Positions 3,818 through 17,898 of a stretch of DNA of 17,898 nt are shown piece after piece (position 1 is the first letter of the stretch; each line of letters starts with the position of its first letter). The stretch lies in IMG/VR virus record IMGVR_UViG_648276670_000009, positions 1 to 17,898 of that record, one strand, 5' to 3'. The position numbers and the translations under genes are program-made. This DNA comes from a virus (Duplodnaviria; Heunggongvirae; Uroviricota; Caudoviricetes). The notes below the pieces were generated by a model that was not told where the DNA came from, did no database searches, and saw only the letters and a program-made list of their open reading frames with translations.

Positions 3818-4254
3818 GCCGCCCTGTCTCCCCATCGCGCTTTCCATTCGAGAGCCAGTCGCGCTTCGTCTGACCACTTAACGCCACGCTCTGTACCGAA
3901 TGCCTGTATAAGCTCTAATAGCTCCGCAAATTCGCTTACACGCATCCTGCTGGTTGACTGGCCTATTACCACAAAGCCATTCCCGGCAAGGTTAGGAACA
4001 ACGTCCTGCTGCTTTAATGCTGCGGTAAACACACACTTCCAGCTTTCTGCATCCAGCCAGCGACCATGCCATTCAACCTGACGAGAGACGTCACCTAAGC
4101 AGGCCCATAGCTTCCTGTTTTGGTCTAAGCTGCGGTTGCGTTCCTGAATGGTTACTACGATTGGTTTGGTTGGGTCTGGAAGGATTTGCTGTACTGCGTG
4201 AATAGCGTTCTGCTGATGTGCTGGAGATCGAATTTCAAAGGTTAGTTTTTTCAT
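3814..4254 (-). CDS. ninB: NinB recombination protein (lambda Orf family)
   Basis: From [56 protein letters not shown]... near-identical to recalled lambda NinB (146 aa). Start at ATG 4254. Confidence 0.85.
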
Positions 4255-4270
4255 GACTTCCCTCTCCCCC

Positions 4271-4301
4271 AAATAAAAAGGCCTGCGATTACCAGCAGGC
4301 C
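4271..4301 (-). terminator. tR2-like intrinsic terminator between replication genes and the nin region
   Basis: Minus-strand hairpin GGCCTGC(loop 8 nt)GCAGGCC followed by TTTTTATTT; located between the helicase stop (4328) and the ninB start (4254), the position of lambda tR2. Confidence 0.6.
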
Positions 4302-7577: not shown

Positions 7578-7688
7578 ATGCCCTCCATAGTAACCATGAG
7601 ACAATAATACGATATGTACTTTTGGAATGCAAACAAAAAATACATCTTGTGCATGGATGGTTTTAGTACAGAGCGTAATAATAAGGAT
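7578..7688. promoter_or_regulatory. OR-like divergent promoter/operator region (PR toward cro, PRM toward cI)
   Basis: On the minus strand, TTGCAT (7632..7627), 17-nt spacer, TATTAT (7609..7604) upstream of the cro leader; several GTAC / AATAC-containing partial palindromes are candidate operator half-sites. Operator boundaries are not resolved. Confidence 0.55.
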
Positions 7689-8348
7689 ATGAAAATGAAA
7701 TGGTATGAACTGGCTAGATCCAGAATGAAAGAGCTCGGCATAACTCAAGAGAAGTTAGCTGAAGAGCTTGGTATGACGCAGGGTGGAATTGGTCACTGGT
7801 TGCGCGGATCTCGTCATCCATCTCTTGACGAGATTGGTGTGGTGTTTAAATACCTTGGTATTGATAACGTCTCATTCAACCACGACGGTACATTTTCACC
7901 TGTTGGCGAATACTCATCTGCCCCCGTTAAAAAACAATATGAGTACCCTGTTTTTTCTCATGTTCAGGCCGGGATGTTCTCGCCTGAGCTTAGAACCTTT
8001 ACCAAAGGTGATGCGGAGAGATGGGTCAGCACAACCAAAAAAGCCAGTGATTGTGCGTTTTGGCTTGAAGTTGAAGGTAATTCCATGACCGCGCCAACAG
8101 GATCCAAGCCAAGCTTTCCTGACGGGATGTTAATTCTCGTTGACCCTGAGCAGGCTGTTGAGCCAGGTGATTTCTGCATAGCCAGACTTGGTGGTGACGA
8201 GTTTACCTTCAAGAAACTGATCAGGGATAGCGGTCAGGTGTTCCTACAGCCACTAAACCCGCAATATCCAATGATTCCATGCAATGATAGCTGTTCCGTA
8301 GTAGGGAAAGTTATCGCCAGCCAGTGGCCTGAAGAGACATTTAGTTAA
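7689..8348 (+). CDS. cI: CI repressor: lambda-like C-terminal S24/LexA-type autocleavage domain fused to a divergent N-terminal HTH domain
   Basis: C-terminal ~135 aa ([39 protein letters not shown]...[15 protein letters not shown]) near-identical to recalled lambda CI; the N-terminal ~90 aa is unlike lambda. Start could be 7689 or 7695 (MKMKW / MKW); the track ORF starts further upstream at 7614. Confidence 0.85.
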
Positions 8349-8380
8349 CAGCCTCACCACTCTAAAACACACAACAATAA

Positions 8381-8409
8381 CCCGACCTTAGCGTCGGGTT
8401 TTCTTTTTC
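8381..8409 (+). terminator. Intrinsic terminator downstream of cI
   Basis: CCCGAC(loop CTTAGC)GTCGGG hairpin followed by TTTTCTTTTT, 33 nt after the cI stop. No rex-like genes lie between cI and pL. Confidence 0.6.
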
Positions 8410-8473
8410 CAAAATATAAACCCATTAAATACAAAGTGTTATAAAAAACTAATTATATTTAGAACATTTTGTA

Positions 8474-8502
8474 TTGACTCGATAAAGTACAAATCGTACT
8501 AT
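8474..8502 (+). promoter_or_regulatory. pL-like early leftward promoter (with OL operators upstream and overlapping)
   Basis: TTGACT (8474..8479), 17-nt spacer, TACTAT (8497..8502), followed by ATCAGCAGGACGCACT as in the recalled lambda pL transcript start; AATACAAA(A/G)TGT motif in both orientations at ~8427..8472 and an AGTAC-N5-GTACT palindrome at 8487..8501 are candidate operators. Confidence 0.7.
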
Positions 8503-8542
8503 TTAGCCATCAGCAGGACGCACTAACCGCCATGAAGGTGAG

Positions 8543-8572
8543 GCTCTTAAAAATTTAGCCCTGAAGAAGGGC
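8543..8572 (+). promoter_or_regulatory. nutL (boxA + boxB)
   Basis: GCTCTTAA (boxA) followed by GCCCTGAAGAAGGGC (boxB stem-loop), upstream of N. Confidence 0.8.
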
Positions 8573-8682
8573 AGCATTCAAAGCAGAAAGCTTTGAGTAG
8601 CGCGAAATGCAGCTGCAAGACAGCAACCGTGGAGATAAGCATCACGGCGCGTTACTCAAAGCTAACTGACAGGAGAATCCAG

Positions 8683-9009
8683 ATGGATGCACAAACACGC
8701 CGCCGCGAACGTCGCGCAGAGAAACAGGCTCAATGGAAAGCAGCAAATCCCCTGTTGGTTGGGGTAAGCGCAAAACCAGTTAACCGCCCTATTCTCTCGC
8801 TGAATCGCAAACCGAAATCACGAGTAGAAAGCGCACTGAATCCGATAGACCTTACGGTGCTGGCTGAATACCACGAACAGATTGAAAGCAACCTGCAACG
8901 TATTGAGCGCAAGAATCAGCGCACATGGTACAGCAAGCCACGCAGTGAAATGGGTGTGACTTGTGTTGGTCGCCAGAAAATGAAATTAGGCAGCAAGCCA
9001 CTTATTTGA
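8683..9009 (+). CDS. N: Antitermination protein N
   Basis: From MDAQTRRRERRAEKQAQWKAANPLLVGVSAKPVNRPILSLNRKPKSRVESALNPIDLTVLAEYH..., near-identical to recalled lambda N (Arg-rich boxB-binding motif); AGGAG RBS before ATG 8683. The track ORF start at 8593 is not used. Confidence 0.9.
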   Translation: MDAQTRRRERRAEKQAQWKAANPLLVGVSAKPVNRPILSLNRKPKSRVESALNPIDLTVLAEYHEQIESNLQRIERKNQRTWYSKPRSEMGVTCVGRQKMKLGSKPLI

Positions 9010-13002: not shown

Positions 13003-13170
13003 ATGAGAGGACTTGCATACAATCCCGGCATTCTTCCGGCAGAAATGATTATTCGCCAACGCGTAAAGCCAATGCCATCGAGAGAGGAATTGCTTAAGAG
13101 AAATTCTTTTCCATCAGTGAATCAAAACAAATATCTGAATGCGATGTGGCGCAAAGGAGGCAGCCAGTGA
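13003..13170 (+). CDS. Hypothetical protein (55 aa)
   Basis: ATG 13003 preceded by GAGGAA; lies in the frame of track ORF 12853..13170, whose upstream part overlaps the previous gene. Confidence 0.45.
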
Positions 13171-13811
13171 ATAACCGCTTTTACATGATGTGCTTGCGTG
13201 AAACTGTGGGTAATAACGCTTCATTCCATTGCCATAACGGCAATGGTTACAGTTCTAATATCGATCGCGCTCATGTTTACACGCTGGAAGAAGCCCAAAA
13301 AGCCTGGAATTGTGGTCGAGATATCGATCAGCCTGTTTGCGCTGATAGCGTGGATGCAATGGCAGTGTGGCACGTTGATTGCCAGTACATCCCTACAGAA
13401 AGCCTGATTGAGTCAGATTGCACTGCGTATGTGGCCTACAAAAAAGGTAGCTGGAACGGCAACGATGTTTACTGGCTTCAACACGGTGGATTGCCAACAG
13501 ATGACTTCAGTAAAGCGACCATCTTTAGCGTCGCCAACAAAAACGAACCAGGAATAGTTTGGTTGCCATTTTCCATTGCTGATGCAGCAAAGCGCAGGAC
13601 GTTCAATATCAATAACTTTAACCGCAGAACAATGGTTCAGGGCGCAGGTTTGGTCATGCCTGACTGGTTGAAAGAGCAGAACAGAAGAAAGAAGTCGCGA
13701 AGCGGGAAGGTGCGTTGGAATTGTCCGCATTGCGGAAAAATCTCCTGGCAGTACAGCCCATATGATTTTGAAGGCTGTAGTGATTACAACTGTGAAGGAT
13801 GGCGAGAATGA
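13167..13811 (+). CDS. Hypothetical protein (214 aa) with C-terminal Cys-rich zinc-ribbon-like motif
   Basis: GTG 13167 preceded by AAAGGAGG at 6-nt spacing and overlapping the upstream stop (the track ORF starts at 13146); C-terminus WNCPHCGK...CSDYNCEGW. No recognised family. Confidence 0.55.
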
Positions 13812-14295
13812 CAATTGACTATCAGTCACTGCGTGAGGCGGCAGAGAAAGCAACGTGGGGAGACTGGGACTCATATAAACACACCGTGGCGCACGTGGTT
13901 ATGAGGTCCGACTAAGTAGTCAGGCCATTGCGCAACACGTTCTGAAAAACAACGCTGAATTTATTGCTGCCTTTAATCCAAAGGTTGCTTTGGCACTACT
14001 GGATGAACGGGAAAGAAACCAGCAATACATCAAACGCCGCGACCAGGAGAACGAGGATATTGCGCTAACGGTAGGGAAGCTGCGCGTTGAGCTTGAAGCA
14101 GAAAAACAGCGGGCAAAAGTTCTATTTATGGAAAATGCTCGGCTTAAGTCAGGTATAGCCGGTCTGATACACCTCGGTATTCGATATGCAGATGTTGAGG
14201 TCATGAAAATTGCTGGAGATGCCCAGCTTTCTACCCCATGCACTGACAGCATCATAAACAGCATTGCAACAGGCATTCGCATCAAAGGAGAGTAA
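13799..14295 (+). pseudogene. ea22-like gene, disrupted (N-terminal 38-codon piece and C-terminal piece in different frames)
   Basis: ATG 13799 encodes [38 protein letters not shown] then stops at 13913..13915; a different frame continues open from ~13916 (...QAIAQHVLKNNAEFIAAFNPKVALALLDERERNQQYIKRRDQENEDIALTVGKLRVELEAE...) to 14295. Both pieces resemble recalled Ea22-family proteins. Confidence 0.5.
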
Positions 14296-14497
14296 TATGA
14301 GCAGGAATACGGGTTTGTAAAAGATAACGCTTGTGAAAATGCTGAATTTCGCGTCGTCTTCACAGCGATGCCAGAGTCTGTAGTGTCAGATGATGACCGT
14401 ACTCAAACATCGGGTTGAGTATTATCTTACTGTTTCTTTACATAAACATTGCTGATACCGTTTAGCTGAAACGACATACATTGCAAGGAGTTTATAA

Positions 14498-14779
14498 ATG
14501 AGTATCAATGAGTTAGAGTCTGAGCAAAAAGATTGGGCGTTATCAATGTTGTGCAGATCCGGTGTCTTGTCTCCATGCAGACATCACGAAGGTGTTTATG
14601 TAGATGAAGGTATAGATATAGAGTCGGCATACAAATATTCCATGAAGGTTTATAAGTCTAATGAAGACAAATCCCCATTCTGCAATGTGCGAGAAATGAC
14701 TGATACCGTGCAAAATTATTATCACGAGTACGGTGGAAACGATACTTGCCCTCTCTGTACAAAATATATAGATGATTAA
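14498..14779 (+). CDS. Hypothetical small Cys-containing protein (93 aa), AT-rich moron-like gene
   Basis: ATG with AAGGAG at 8-nt spacing; low GC; five Cys including CPLC; bracketed by a ~200-bp non-coding leader and an intrinsic terminator. Confidence 0.55.
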   Translation: MSINELESEQKDWALSMLCRSGVLSPCRHHEGVYVDEGIDIESAYKYSMKVYKSNEDKSPFCNVREMTDTVQNYYHEYGGNDTCPLCTKYIDD

Positions 14780-14797
14780 ACCAAATATTACATAACA

Positions 14798-14826
14798 ATC
14801 CTCGCACTCGCGGGGATTTCTTTTAT
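14798..14826 (+). terminator. Intrinsic terminator after the 93-aa gene
   Basis: ATCCTCGC(loop ACTC)GCGGGGAT followed by TTCTTTTAT. Confidence 0.55.
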
Positions 14827-14837
14827 ATGGGGATAAT

Positions 14838-15638
14838 ATGACCATCCACTTTCACGGCAGCCCAATATGGGGTGATGAGCATGCCCCTACAGATATGCTG
14901 ATTAAAGTCCTTTACCGTGATGGTGGGGCTTTTGTTTCATTTGCCAGACCAGAGCAGATGAAAAAGATTGCCATGTTCCCTTGTGATATACGCCTTGATA
15001 ACGGCGCTTTTAGCGACTGGATGAAAGCATTAAAGAAAGGCACTCCGGTAGACTGGAGTAAGAGACGAGCAAAATTCTACGACTTTGTTGGGAAGTGGTT
15101 CAGCAGAATTGAATGGTTTCTTATACCTGACGTTATCGAAGGGACAGAGGCAGAAAACGACGAGCAGATTGAGTTGGTTCCTGATTGGCTAAAATCAAAA
15201 GCGGTTCCGGTCTGGCATACCGACGAATCAATTGAACGTCTTTTACGCCTTTCTGGCAAATTTGAATGGGTGGCGATTGGATGCTGCGGCCCACACAGGC
15301 ACATACGCTCTAAATGGTGGGAACAGAGAATGGATGAAGTTTTCACTGAGCTTTATATCAATCGTAATTTGAAAGTGAAAATTCATGGTCTTCGAATGCT
15401 CGACGTGAGAGTTCTTGGTATGTATCCGTTCGCCAGTGCGGATTCTACTAATGTTGCTGTTAACGTACCGAAGACAGAGAAGCGATTTCCTGAGATTACC
15501 GACAAACTGGCACGTACAGCTGTACTTCGCTCAGCTATTGAAAAGGTGCACCCGCCATCGATATCAGCATGGGTAGACAGAAAGATGAGAGAGCCGGCGC
15601 AAGCCGGTTTTTTATTTGAATTCACCGACGCCGCTTAA
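14838..15638 (+). CDS. Hypothetical protein (266 aa), conserved-looking but unassigned
   Basis: Long ATG ORF in the accessory region between ea22 and the excisionase gene. Motifs noted: YRDGGAFVSF, GCCGPHRH. No confident family assignment. Confidence 0.6.
   Translation: MTIHFHGSPIWGDEHAPTDMLIKVLYRDGGAFVSFARPEQMKKIAMFPCDIRLDNGAFSDWMKALKKGTPVDWSKRRAKFYDFVGKWFSRIEWFLIPDVIEGTEAENDEQIELVPDWLKSKAVPVWHTDESIERLLRLSGKFEWVAIGCCGPHRHIRSKWWEQRMDEVFTELYINRNLKVKIHGLRMLDVRVLGMYPFASADSTNVAVNVPKTEKRFPEITDKLARTAVLRSAIEKVHPPSISAWVDRKMREPAQAGFLFEFTDAA
15593..15616 (+). terminator. Terminator-like hairpin (GCAA tetraloop) with U-tract inside the 3' end of the 266-aa CDS
   Basis: GCCGGC-GCAA-GCCGGT followed by TTTTTTATTT, ending 22 nt before the CDS stop. 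Confidence 0.35.
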
Positions 15639-15695
15639 TGCGGATTTCTTTTATCTGAACTCGCTACGGCGGGTTTTGTTTTATGGAGATGATAA

Positions 15696-15863
15696 ATGCA
15701 CTTCCGAGTCACAGGAGAATGGAATGGAGAGCCATTCAACAGAGTTATCGAAGCAGAGGACATCAACGACTGCTATGACCACTGGATGTTGTGGGCGCAG
15801 ATAGCACATGCAGACGTAACCAATATTCGAATTGAAGAACTGAAAGAACACCAAGCCGCCTGA
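15696..15863 (+). CDS. Hypothetical small protein (55 aa), commonly seen near xis in enterobacterial prophages
   Basis: ATG 15696 with GGAGATG upstream; MHFRVTGEWNGEPFNRVIEAEDINDCYDHWMLWAQIAHADVTNIRIEELKEHQAA; below the track cut-off. Confidence 0.5.
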   Translation: MHFRVTGEWNGEPFNRVIEAEDINDCYDHWMLWAQIAHADVTNIRIEELKEHQAA

Positions 15864-15877
15864 TGGCGGTTTTTTAT
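15855..15877 (+). terminator. Intrinsic terminator after the 55-aa gene
   Basis: GCCGCC(loop TGAT)GGCGGT followed by TTTTTTATT; the stop codon lies in the loop. Confidence 0.6.
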
Positions 15878-15885
15878 TGCCTGAT

Positions 15886-15901
15886 TTGCAGGTTCGATTC
15901 C
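15886..15901 (+). other. tRNA T-arm-like fragment (TTGCAGGTTCGATTCC) upstream of the excisionase gene; possible att remnant
   Basis: The 16-nt sequence has a canonical T-loop (TTCGATT) preceded by stem GCAGG; together with the fragment at 16195..16209 it would form GCAGG-TTCGATT-CCTGC-AGGGGAC-A-CCA, the 3' half of a tRNA (recalled as argW-like). Confidence 0.5.
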
Positions 15902-15920
15902 CTATTCGGAGATAGCACTC

Positions 15921-16121
15921 ATGCAACACGAACTACAGCCTGATTCACTGGTTGATTTGAAATTCATCATGGCTGATACTGGCTTCGGTAAAACCTTCAT
16001 CTATGACCGGATTAAGTCCGGAGACCTGCCTAAAGCCAAAGTTATCCACGGGCGAGCAAGATGGTTATATCGTGACCATTGTGAATTCAAAAATAAGCTC
16101 TTAAGCCGCGCCAATGGGTAA
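15921..16121 (+). CDS. torI: AlpA/TorI-family excisionase (winged-helix Xis-like), located at the att-proximal end of the prophage
   Basis: 66 aa MQHELQPDSLVDLKFIMADTGFGKTFIYDRIKSGDLPKAKVIHGRARWLYRDHCEFKNKLLSRANG; AlpA-type pattern (TG-x4-IY-x2-I-x2-G-x-LP ... W); the identification as TorI of KplE1/CPS-53 is from memory and position next to an argW-type att, and is not verified. Confidence 0.6.
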   Translation: MQHELQPDSLVDLKFIMADTGFGKTFIYDRIKSGDLPKAKVIHGRARWLYRDHCEFKNKLLSRANG

Positions 16122-16194
16122 AATAGCGGGTAAAATATTTTTCACATCTAAAAAACACCATTCCAATCAATCCCCTGCCGCGTCAAGTAGATGT

Positions 16195-16209
16195 CTGCAG
16201 GGGACACCA
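16195..16209 (+). other. Prophage attachment-site core: 3'-terminal 15 nt of a tRNA (CTGCAGGGGACACCA, argW-like) marking the prophage/chromosome junction
   Basis: Sequence ends in the acceptor 3' strand + discriminator + CCA, but no tRNA body precedes it (16135..16194 is unrelated). Typical of the displaced tRNA 3' end left at a prophage end. Confidence 0.6.
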
Positions 16210-16650
16210 GATACCCTTCAAACGAAATCTACCTTCACCCCGTAAAAGATGGGTTTGGCAGCACACTTGCCTTATATCTACTCATTTTTACTGCAACAGG
16301 TTGAAATCTCAGCACTGTCAGAAAGCGCTGATGACTAAACAGCCCTGGGCCGGGCGATGTAACCATCACACAGAATCCTGATAGCGAAATATGGCGTGAC
16401 TCGATACTTCACTCCGCAATGCATTCCTTGATGAATTCGCAGGACCGTGATACACGGGACAGGTCACTGAATGACGACAATGTCCTGGAAATCAGCGAAC
16501 CGCGCATCTGAAGTACATTTGAGCGACTGTACCAGAACATGAATGAGGCGTTTGGATTAGGCGATTATTAGCAGGGCTAAGCATTTTACTATTATTATTT
16601 TCCGGTTGAGGGATATAGAGCTATCGACAACAACCGGAAAAAGTTTACGT

Positions 16651-17898
16651 CTATATTGCTGAAGGTACAGGCGTTTCCATAACTATTTGCTCGCGTTTTT
16701 TACTCAAGAAGAAAATGCCAAATAGCAACATCAGGCAGACAATACCCGAAATTGCGAAGAAAACTGTCTGGTAGCCTGCGTGGTCAAAGAGTATCCCAGT
16801 CGGCGTTGAAAGCAGCACAATCCCAAGCGAACTGGCAATTTGAAAACCAATCAGAAAGATCGTCGACGACAGGCGCTTATCAAAGTTTGCCACGCTGTAT
16901 TTGAAGACGGATATGACACAAAGTGGAACCTCAATGGCATGTAACAACTTCACTAATGAAATAATCCAGGGGTTAACGAACAGCGCGCAGGAAAGGATAC
17001 GCAACGCCATAATCACAACTCCGATAAGTAATGCATTTTTTGGCCCTACCCGATTCACAAAGAAAGGAATAATCGCCATGCACAGCGCTTCGAGTACCAC
17101 CTGGAATGAGTTGAGATAACCATACAGGCGCGTTCCTACATCGTGTGATTCGAATAAACCTGCATAAAAGACAGGAAAAAGTTGTTGATCAAAAATGTTA
17201 TAGAAAGACCACGTCCCCACAATAAATATGACGAAAACCCAGAAGTTTCGATCCTTGAAAACTGCGATAAAATCCTCTTTTTTTACCCCTCCCGCATCTG
17301 CCGCTACGCACTGGTGATCCTTATCTTTAAAACGCATGTTGATCATCATAAATACAGCGCCAAATAGCGAGACCAACCAGAAGTTGATATGGGGACTGAT
17401 ACTAAAAAATATGCCGGCAAAGAACGCGCCAATAGCATAGCCAAAAGATCCCCAGGCGCGCGCTGTTCCATATTCGAAATGAAAATTTCGCGCCATTTTT
17501 TCGGTGAAGCTATCAAGCAAACCGCATCCCGCCAGATACCCCAAGCCAAAAAATAGCGCCCCCAGAATTAGACCTACAGAAAAATTGCTTTGCAGTAACG
17601 GTTCATAAACGTAAATCATAAACGGTCCGGTCAAGACCAGGATGAAACTCATACACCAGATGAGCGGTTTCTTCAGACCGAGTTTATCCTGAACGATGCC
17701 GTAGAACATCATAAATAGAATGCTGGTAAACTGGTTGACCGAATAAAGTGTACCTAATTCCGTCCCTGTCAACCCTAGATGTCCTTTCAGCCAAATAGCG
17801 TATAACGACCACCACAGCGACCAGGAAATAAAAAAGAGAAATGAGTAACTGGATGCAAAACGATAGTACGCATTTCTGAATGGAATATTCAGTGCCAT
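16651..17898 (-). CDS. cscB: LacY-family oligosaccharide:H+ symporter, sucrose permease CscB-like
   Basis: 415-aa ORF with 12 hydrophobic segments, starting at the last base of the window (ATG 17898..17896); recalled as matching CscB of the E. coli csc sucrose regulon, which is known to lie near argW. Confidence 0.7.
   Translation of the reverse strand: MALNIPFRNAYYRFASSYSFLFFISWSLWWSLYAIWLKGHLGLTGTELGTLYSVNQFTSILFMMFYGIVQDKLGLKKPLIWCMSFILVLTGPFMIYVYEPLLQSNFSVGLILGALFFGLGYLAGCGLLDSFTEKMARNFHFEYGTARAWGSFGYAIGAFFAGIFFSISPHINFWLVSLFGAVFMMINMRFKDKDHQCVAADAGGVKKEDFIAVFKDRNFWVFVIFIVGTWSFYNIFDQQLFPVFYAGLFESHDVGTRLYGYLNSFQVVLEALCMAIIPFFVNRVGPKNALLIGVVIMALRILSCALFVNPWIISLVKLLHAIEVPLCVISVFKYSVANFDKRLSSTIFLIGFQIASSLGIVLLSTPTGILFDHAGYQTVFFAISGIVCLMLLFGIFFLSKKREQIVMETPVPSAI

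Follow-up and report, generated by a model that had tools for sequence, protein, structure and literature searches.

The window analysed here, the whole stretch of 17,898 nucleotides, carries an E. coli prophage, a lambdoid mosaic that is integrated beside the csc sucrose genes. A preliminary description of this DNA had singled out the interval 14296-14826, and the ORF, the AAGGAG ribosome-binding site, the non-coding stretch of about 200 bp, the terminator and the lower GC content that it reported are all present where it had placed them. The ORF extends on the + strand from an ATG at 14498 to a TAA at 14777-14779 and encodes 93 amino acids. Its Shine-Dalgarno sequence (AAGGAG, 14485-14490, + strand) is followed by the ATG 7 nt further on, the same as in lambda. 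Homology searches, which the preliminary description had proposed for the product, identified the gene as lambda ea8.5 by Pfam, phrog and BLAST matches, and the flagged segment is lambda ea8.5 with its native flanks, which is already known and has for decades been part of published work and of the databases. The features of the region are the following:

7614-8348, + strand, CI-like repressor gene (phrog match)
8593-9009, + strand, N-like antiterminator gene heading the co-directional early-left array to which ea8.5 belongs (phrog match)
13990-14295, + strand, C-terminal part of an ea22-like gene with its native stop at 14293-14295 (Pfam Ead_Ea22, E=1.2e-13)
14296-14497, + strand, 202-bp spacer between ea22 and ea8.5 (alignment to lambda)
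14498-14779, + strand, ea8.5 gene (PF20735, phrog_6325, tblastn to lambda, PDB 2M7A, invariant columns)
14797-14826, + strand, hairpin and T-run corresponding to lambda t3 (terminator scan, fold, PMC4195576 Table 4)
14830-15641, + strand, 812-bp insertion relative to lambda with a DpdA-like gene at 14838-15638 (BLAST and alignment to lambda)
15657-15676, + strand, second hairpin, corresponding to lambda t4, which comes directly after t3 in lambda (terminator scan, PMC4195576 Table 4)
15696-15863, + strand, orf55 gene as in lambda (lambdap35 homologue; phrog_676), with an identity of about 97% to lambda 29339-29098
15853-15872, + strand, terminator after the orf55 homologue, corresponding to lambda t5 (terminator scan)
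15921-16121, + strand, TorI-type excisionase (xis) gene
16651-17898, - strand, host cscB sucrose transporter gene

Megablast aligned positions 14310-14829 of the window with lambda 29843-29324 at 99% identity, and equally well with lambda hybrids, HK630, DE3 and others; with blastn the match was longer (14272-14829 against lambda 29870-29324). The coding sequence differs from lambda ea8.5 (29374-29655, lambdap36, NP_040611) by a single nucleotide, TAT for CAT in codon 90, and the two proteins share 92 of 93 residues (98.9% in tblastn), with Tyr90 here and His90 in lambda. The protein matched Pfam family PF20735 (Lambda_ea8_5) over profile positions 1-90 of 90, with E=8.8e-48 and 161.3 bits against a cut-off of 27, and phrog_6325 with E=6.6e-54. 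The same gene in the most similar E. coli prophage (near-identical) carries the PGAP label 'Ea8.5 family phage-derived protein'. What is shared with lambda includes the ribosome-binding site, the spacer from lambda 29843 downward, the t3 hairpin, the ea22 C-terminus upstream and the position before orf55 and xis. The differences are the H90Y change, an 11-bp indel just past the ea22 stop and the 812-bp DpdA-like cassette between t3 and t4, because of which ea8.5 is not directly followed by orf55 here. The surrounding phage is unlike lambda in its P22-type Erf/Abc2 recombination genes, its TorI-type xis and its integration beside the csc genes.

The GC content is 38.8% in the flagged interval and 38.3% in the ea8.5 coding sequence, whereas the phage part of the window has 46.6%. 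Among 531-bp stretches, the interval falls within the lowest 2.6% (about 2.2 SD). The dip is real but moderate, as GC falls to 35% elsewhere in the window. It shows that the cassette has an origin unlike that of its neighbours, and a moron would show the same.

The ea22-like gene upstream is split between two different frames: 35 codons of its N-terminus remain at 13808-13915, and its C-terminal domain of 101 codons, which has no ATG, occupies 13990-14295. Longer ea22 relatives carry several hundred extra bases between the two remnants, and the ea22-like part is 94% identical to lambda 30283-30168. The preliminary description had suggested that the non-coding leader of the 93-residue ORF might be what is left of the deleted part of this gene. 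The alignment to lambda rules this out: the ea22-like ORF ends in GIRIKGE-stop as lambda ea22 does, so nothing is missing from its 3' end, and the lesion in ea22 lies upstream, at about 13856-13990. The spacer is native to lambda, where 191 bp separate the end of ea22 (29847) from the start of ea8.5 (29655). Here it is bounded by the TAA of the ea22-like ORF on the left and by the ea8.5 ATG on the right, contains no ORF of at least 40 aa on the + strand of 14296-14497, and is collinear with lambda save for the 11-bp indel adjoining the ea22 stop, being identical to lambda 29843-29656 from 14310 on. It is also 100% identical in E. coli BS15R-A. The indel makes a 7-codon mini-ORF, from an ATG at 14297 to a TAA at 14320, which is absent from lambda and starts 6 nt past a second AAGGAG (14285-14290) within the terminal part of the ea22-like ORF; this mini-ORF is probably meaningless. 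Similar 'incomplete' ea22 annotations are found at the same site in related prophages. A 221-aa phrog_2457 ORF (13146-13811) overlaps the start of the ea22 remnant; its C-terminus is Cys-rich (CPHCGK...CSDYNCEGW), and it had no Pfam, NCBIfam or PADLOC match.

On the other side of ea8.5, the insertion at 14830-15641 lies exactly between t3 and t4, with similar T-tracts at its borders (...GGGGATTTCTTTTATATG / ...GCGGATTTCTTTTATCTG). Its gene encodes a 266-aa protein that matched phrog_887, 'queuine tRNA-ribosyltransferase' (E=4.4e-102), and gave no Pfam, NCBIfam, PADLOC or PDB sequence match. The protein may be one of the 'singleton DpdA' proteins noted in phages of gamma-proteobacteria (PMC6884629) and, to judge by its sequence, could be a 7-deazaguanine DNA-modification enzyme using host preQ0. 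The DpdA-like gene is also present in phage HK106, and the arrangement of ea8.5 plus dpdA-like gene over most of 13100-17898 was found in 1 of 5,426 complete E. coli genomes. Judged from the alignment, the true insertion relative to lambda is this neighbouring DpdA-like gene and not ea8.5. Further downstream, no integrase gene was found in the window between xis and cscB, where the gap is about 500 bp. We take the placement of int and xis at opposite prophage ends, with an argW site, to be the KplE1/CPS-53-type arrangement, and this would fit the missing int.

To place the protein in its family, we scanned 1.84 billion representative sequences exhaustively with HMMER and obtained 76 Ea8.5 relatives at E<=1e-3, nearly all of them single-domain proteins of 90-100 aa. 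Across 47 full-length relatives, which are 27-60% identical to the query, no columns other than M1, C27, H30, C84 and C87 are invariant. Since C27, H30, C84 and C87 are invariant across these relatives, we predict one zinc site; the C-x2-H ... C-x2-C set fits a single site of a structural kind. The 93-aa single-domain protein encoded here carries the full ligand set of the family, and C19 and C62 of the lambda-type protein are not conserved among relatives. A word-indexed protein search for Ea8.5 returned near-identical copies and fragments and nothing further, and Escherichia sp. E1V33 was the sole true diverged homologue in the species-wide genome scan. A distant relative of about 30% identity (P0048) is encoded on three phage-like contigs (L040-L042; gene at 4001-4291 / 1494-1784), where it stands alone on the strand opposite to its neighbours and for that reason must be served by a promoter of its own, in contrast to the arrangement in lambda. 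All three contigs also carry an HNH endonuclease gene, and L040 has RecT and YqaJ genes in addition.

A solved prophage homologue, PDB 2M7A, is 42% identical to the query over all 93 residues (E=4.8e-19), and 2M7B is also homologous. The fold described for both is a hybrid of homeodomain and zinc finger (Kwan et al. 2013, cited by both PMC8614690 and PMC4195576). From the 42% full-length identity we infer that the protein here adopts a fold like that of 2M7A. The 2M7A-type allele belongs to the same Pfam family, has the same length, keeps C27, H30, C84 and C87, and fills the same position ahead of xis/int, with the same t3/t4 pair behind it. It differs in lacking Cys19 and Cys62, and its coding sequence and upstream DNA are unrelated to the lambda type at the nucleotide level. 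As to function, ea8.5 on a plasmid strongly represses the CII-dependent promoter paQ and, weakly, pI, according to the summary in PMC7093339. Int, Q, Ren, MinE and tail fibre proteins were obtained as two-hybrid partners and judged promiscuous (PMC3224144, PMC8614690). We regard these partners as promiscuous and unverified, and the promoter effects stem from multicopy plasmids. The published overexpression data point to a role of Ea8.5 in the lysis-lysogeny decision.

The hairpin downstream of ea8.5 has a 9-bp stem with 5 G-C pairs (14797-14818), followed in the terminator scan by TCTTTTAT. It folds at -16 kcal/mol (z = -4.4), and none of 200 shuffles folded as well. Its sequence is that of the predicted (ARNold) terminator t3-lambda in PMC4195576 Table 4, next to which t4-lambda follows in lambda. 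When the 5,426 complete E. coli genomes were queried with the 531-bp interval, 1,137 gave a match, and 235 of these held 80% or more of the query; in the remaining genomes (about 900), the sampled matches cover only the last 35 bp, that is, the t3 hairpin. In an O157:H7 prophage the same hairpin stands behind an ASCH-domain gene, just before xis and int, and the hairpin pair is also found behind the 42%-identity Ea8.5 allele, whose DNA is otherwise unrelated in coding sequence and upstream region. The same 34-35 bp thus trail unrelated genes as well as a DNA-unrelated Ea8.5 allele, and t3 therefore belongs to the backbone. The preliminary description had taken the hairpin as the gene's own terminator, a claim that is not supported for lambda's predicted t3, which by sampling lies behind unrelated genes in some 900 further genomes. 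Other hairpin terminators stand behind neighbouring small genes (15588, 15657 and 15853), so a terminator downstream does not single out ea8.5. In the window, the coordinates of the junction are 14792-14826 for t3 and 15642-15676 for t4.

As shown by this comparison, the cargo at the junction comprises the lambda-type Ea8.5 allele, the 42%-identity allele and ASCH-domain genes, with the DpdA-like gene between t3 and t4. The t3/t4 pair is thus a conserved junction of the backbone where accessory genes are swapped among lambdoid phages, and the pattern suggests that cassettes are exchanged by recombination at the terminator sequences. We did not equate the hairpin with the classical lambda terminator tL3: plasmid pKD46, which we take to carry lambda 31088-33241 including tL3, would place tL3 just after exo and so make it a different hairpin from the one here.

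We then considered ea8.5 in the context of the operon. On the + strand the genes run in the order CI-like repressor, N-like antiterminator, Erf, SSB, Abc2, phrog_2457, ea22-like, ea8.5, dpdA-like, orf55 and TorI-type xis, the N-like and CI-like genes having been assigned by phrog_271 and phrog_4. The replication genes are oriented oppositely to this early-left array. As in lambda, ea8.5 is co-directional with the array; it lies about 5.5 kb downstream of the N-like gene, with the recombination genes on one side and xis on the other. The best sigma-70-like site in 8349-8600, the region in which pL is expected, is TTGACT-17-TACTAT with a start at 8474, and it scores clearly above the best site of the spacer. 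Lambda's exo-xis region has been described as pL-transcribed, and ea8.5 mRNA has been measured both after infection and after induction, at levels below those of the genes upstream of the predicted t2 (PMC4195576); pL, which drives the exo-xis genes, is repressed by CI in lysogeny (PMC7093339). The position of ea8.5 in the array agrees with this published pL-dependent early expression, which would by analogy apply to the prophage here.

Taken as a whole, the locus is very probably explained best as the lambda ea8.5 cassette, a gene of the pL operon with shared flanks and a product that is likely to be regulatory. In this prophage, ea8.5 would be a distal delayed-early gene of a leftward, pL-type operon. 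Upon infection or induction, RNA polymerase starting from pL and modified by the N-like antiterminator would pass the string of intrinsic terminators, producing a transcript expected to cover erf, ssb and abc2, then the ea22 remnant and ea8.5, and beyond these the dpdA-like gene, orf55 and xis. The AAGGAG site would then allow efficient translation of ea8.5 from this long pL mRNA, and in a repressed lysogen the gene would be expected to be silent. Its predicted product is a single-domain protein of about 10 kDa that would hold one zinc ion through Cys27, His30, Cys84 and Cys87, and its most likely role, inferred from published work, is to influence the lysis-lysogeny decision as a small regulator. 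Contacts with nucleic acid or with proteins may allow it to damp promoters that depend on CII (paQ and, weakly, pI), and an early-made, zinc-stabilised Ea8.5 would, on the same published grounds, tilt the decision toward lysis. The t3 hairpin and the spacer would not be private control elements of the gene.

A different function for the product was also considered, namely that Ea8.5 acts in host takeover or counter-defence on one specific target of the host, and not as a lysis-lysogeny modulator, or, in a weaker variant, that the spacer holds a stress-conditional promoter by which the gene becomes moron-like. Two alleles of 42% identity in the same slot before xis, a swappable neighbour in the DpdA-like gene and a hot-spot bounded by conserved terminators are all compatible with a host-takeover or counter-defence role, which we nevertheless consider unlikely.

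The preliminary description had proposed that the segment is a self-contained moron of the independently expressed kind that often encodes lysogenic-conversion or defence functions. Part of this holds: ea8.5 is real, conserved and dispensable, an accessory gene of lower GC. A true moron would further have a promoter in the 202-bp leader and a terminator of its own, would be expressed in the repressed prophage and would confer a conversion or defence trait. Such a reading draws on the GC deviation, on the strong ribosome-binding site, the terminator downstream and the unusually long upstream spacer, on the presence or absence of the gene between conserved flanks in related prophages, and on the distant family members that stand alone on the strand opposite to their neighbours, with a promoter of their own. 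The distribution is indeed patchy, as ea8.5 was found in lambdoid prophages of 235 of the 5,426 complete E. coli genomes and other genes occupy the same slot in relatives. Independent expression, however, fared poorly. A consensus promoter scan found no sigma-70-like site on the + strand of 14296-14497, and in a weighted -35/-10 scan the best spacer site was TTCACA-16-TAGTGT (8/12), which was equalled or beaten by 62% of shuffles; both scans read consensus promoters, and a weak, activator-dependent, non-canonical or alternative-sigma promoter could escape them. In addition, the gene points the same way as the entire early-left array behind the N-like gene, lambda ea8.5 is placed by the literature in the pL-transcribed exo-xis region, and the terminator is shared backbone rather than gene-specific. 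The proposed conversion or defence function found no literature support and no PADLOC family at E<=0.01; a defence role was rejected as a candidate on the missing PADLOC match, and NCBIfam has no model for the protein.

Compared with morons in the Hendrix/Juhala sense, such as lambda bor and lom and HK97 gp15, ea8.5 shares dispensability, deviating GC, patchiness and an adjacent downstream terminator. Unlike them, it has no detected promoter, it lies inside and is co-oriented with a repressor-controlled early-left operon, and its terminator belongs to the backbone. Thus, among the hallmarks of a moron, the presence or absence between conserved flanks, the deviating GC and a terminator are found, and a promoter of its own and a terminator acquired with the gene are not. 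Given the absence of a promoter in the consensus test and the shared terminator, ea8.5 is an accessory cassette of the early-left operon and not a moron, and we rate the moron reading as quite improbable.

The spacer itself could also be a functional element, that is, a cis-regulatory RNA, a small RNA or the target of an antisense transcript from a - strand promoter-like site (14321-14294) at the left border of the spacer. That site, together with 202 bp that hold no ORF and are 100% identical in lambda and other prophages, speaks for such an element. However, the fold of the spacer was no better than that of shuffled sequences (z = 0.09) and an Rfam search of it gave no match at E<=1, results by which we discarded a structured RNA in the leader; promoter-like sites in the whole 3.7-kb scan numbered 2, fewer than the 6.7 expected by chance. 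The 100% identity with lambda probably reflects recent common descent and not selection, because the coding sequence is equally identical. Moreover, the region upstream of the 42%-identity Ea8.5 allele is shorter and unrelated, and conservation of the spacer therefore does not extend over the family. A functional role for the spacer is therefore very doubtful.

Finally, that the ORF is a decaying, functionless remnant in a defective prophage, as the broken ea22-like neighbour, the absence of an integrase gene between xis and cscB in the window and the dispensability of ea8.5 in lambda might suggest, is scarcely credible against an intact, full-length reading frame with start, ribosome-binding site and stop all in place, one conservative-position change relative to lambda and the four invariant zinc ligands kept, in a family whose length and ligands are retained down to 27% identity, a sign of purifying selection on the protein.

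Reading the segment as the lambda ea8.5 cassette, we attach little weight to it as a discovery, since gene, flanks and terminator are those of phage lambda. Its value is in calibration: low GC, a strong ribosome-binding site, a long spacer and a terminator resemble a moron and are not sufficient to call one, and the matter was decided by the lack of a promoter, by the setting of the gene in its operon and by what related prophages showed. A minor gain is the t3/t4 pair as an exchange junction that accommodates either Ea8.5 allele, ASCH-domain genes or the DpdA-like gene.

For the most part, the species-wide genome scan returned lambda DNA from unrelated assemblies and yielded no taxonomic information. 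Copies of Ea8.5 with 99-100% identity came from Shewanella, Pseudomonas, Oceanobacillus, Streptomyces, Helicobacter and further assemblies (loci L006-L036). The contigs with such out-of-place copies are often about 48.4-48.5 kb long or tiny, with low coverage, and these copies in unrelated assemblies are almost certainly contamination by lambda control or ladder DNA. Similarly, the 48,361-bp record of 'Campylobacter phage CJLB-4' and part of a Xanthomonas phage record (MW057783.1, OQ055246.1) are identical to lambda over the matched part.
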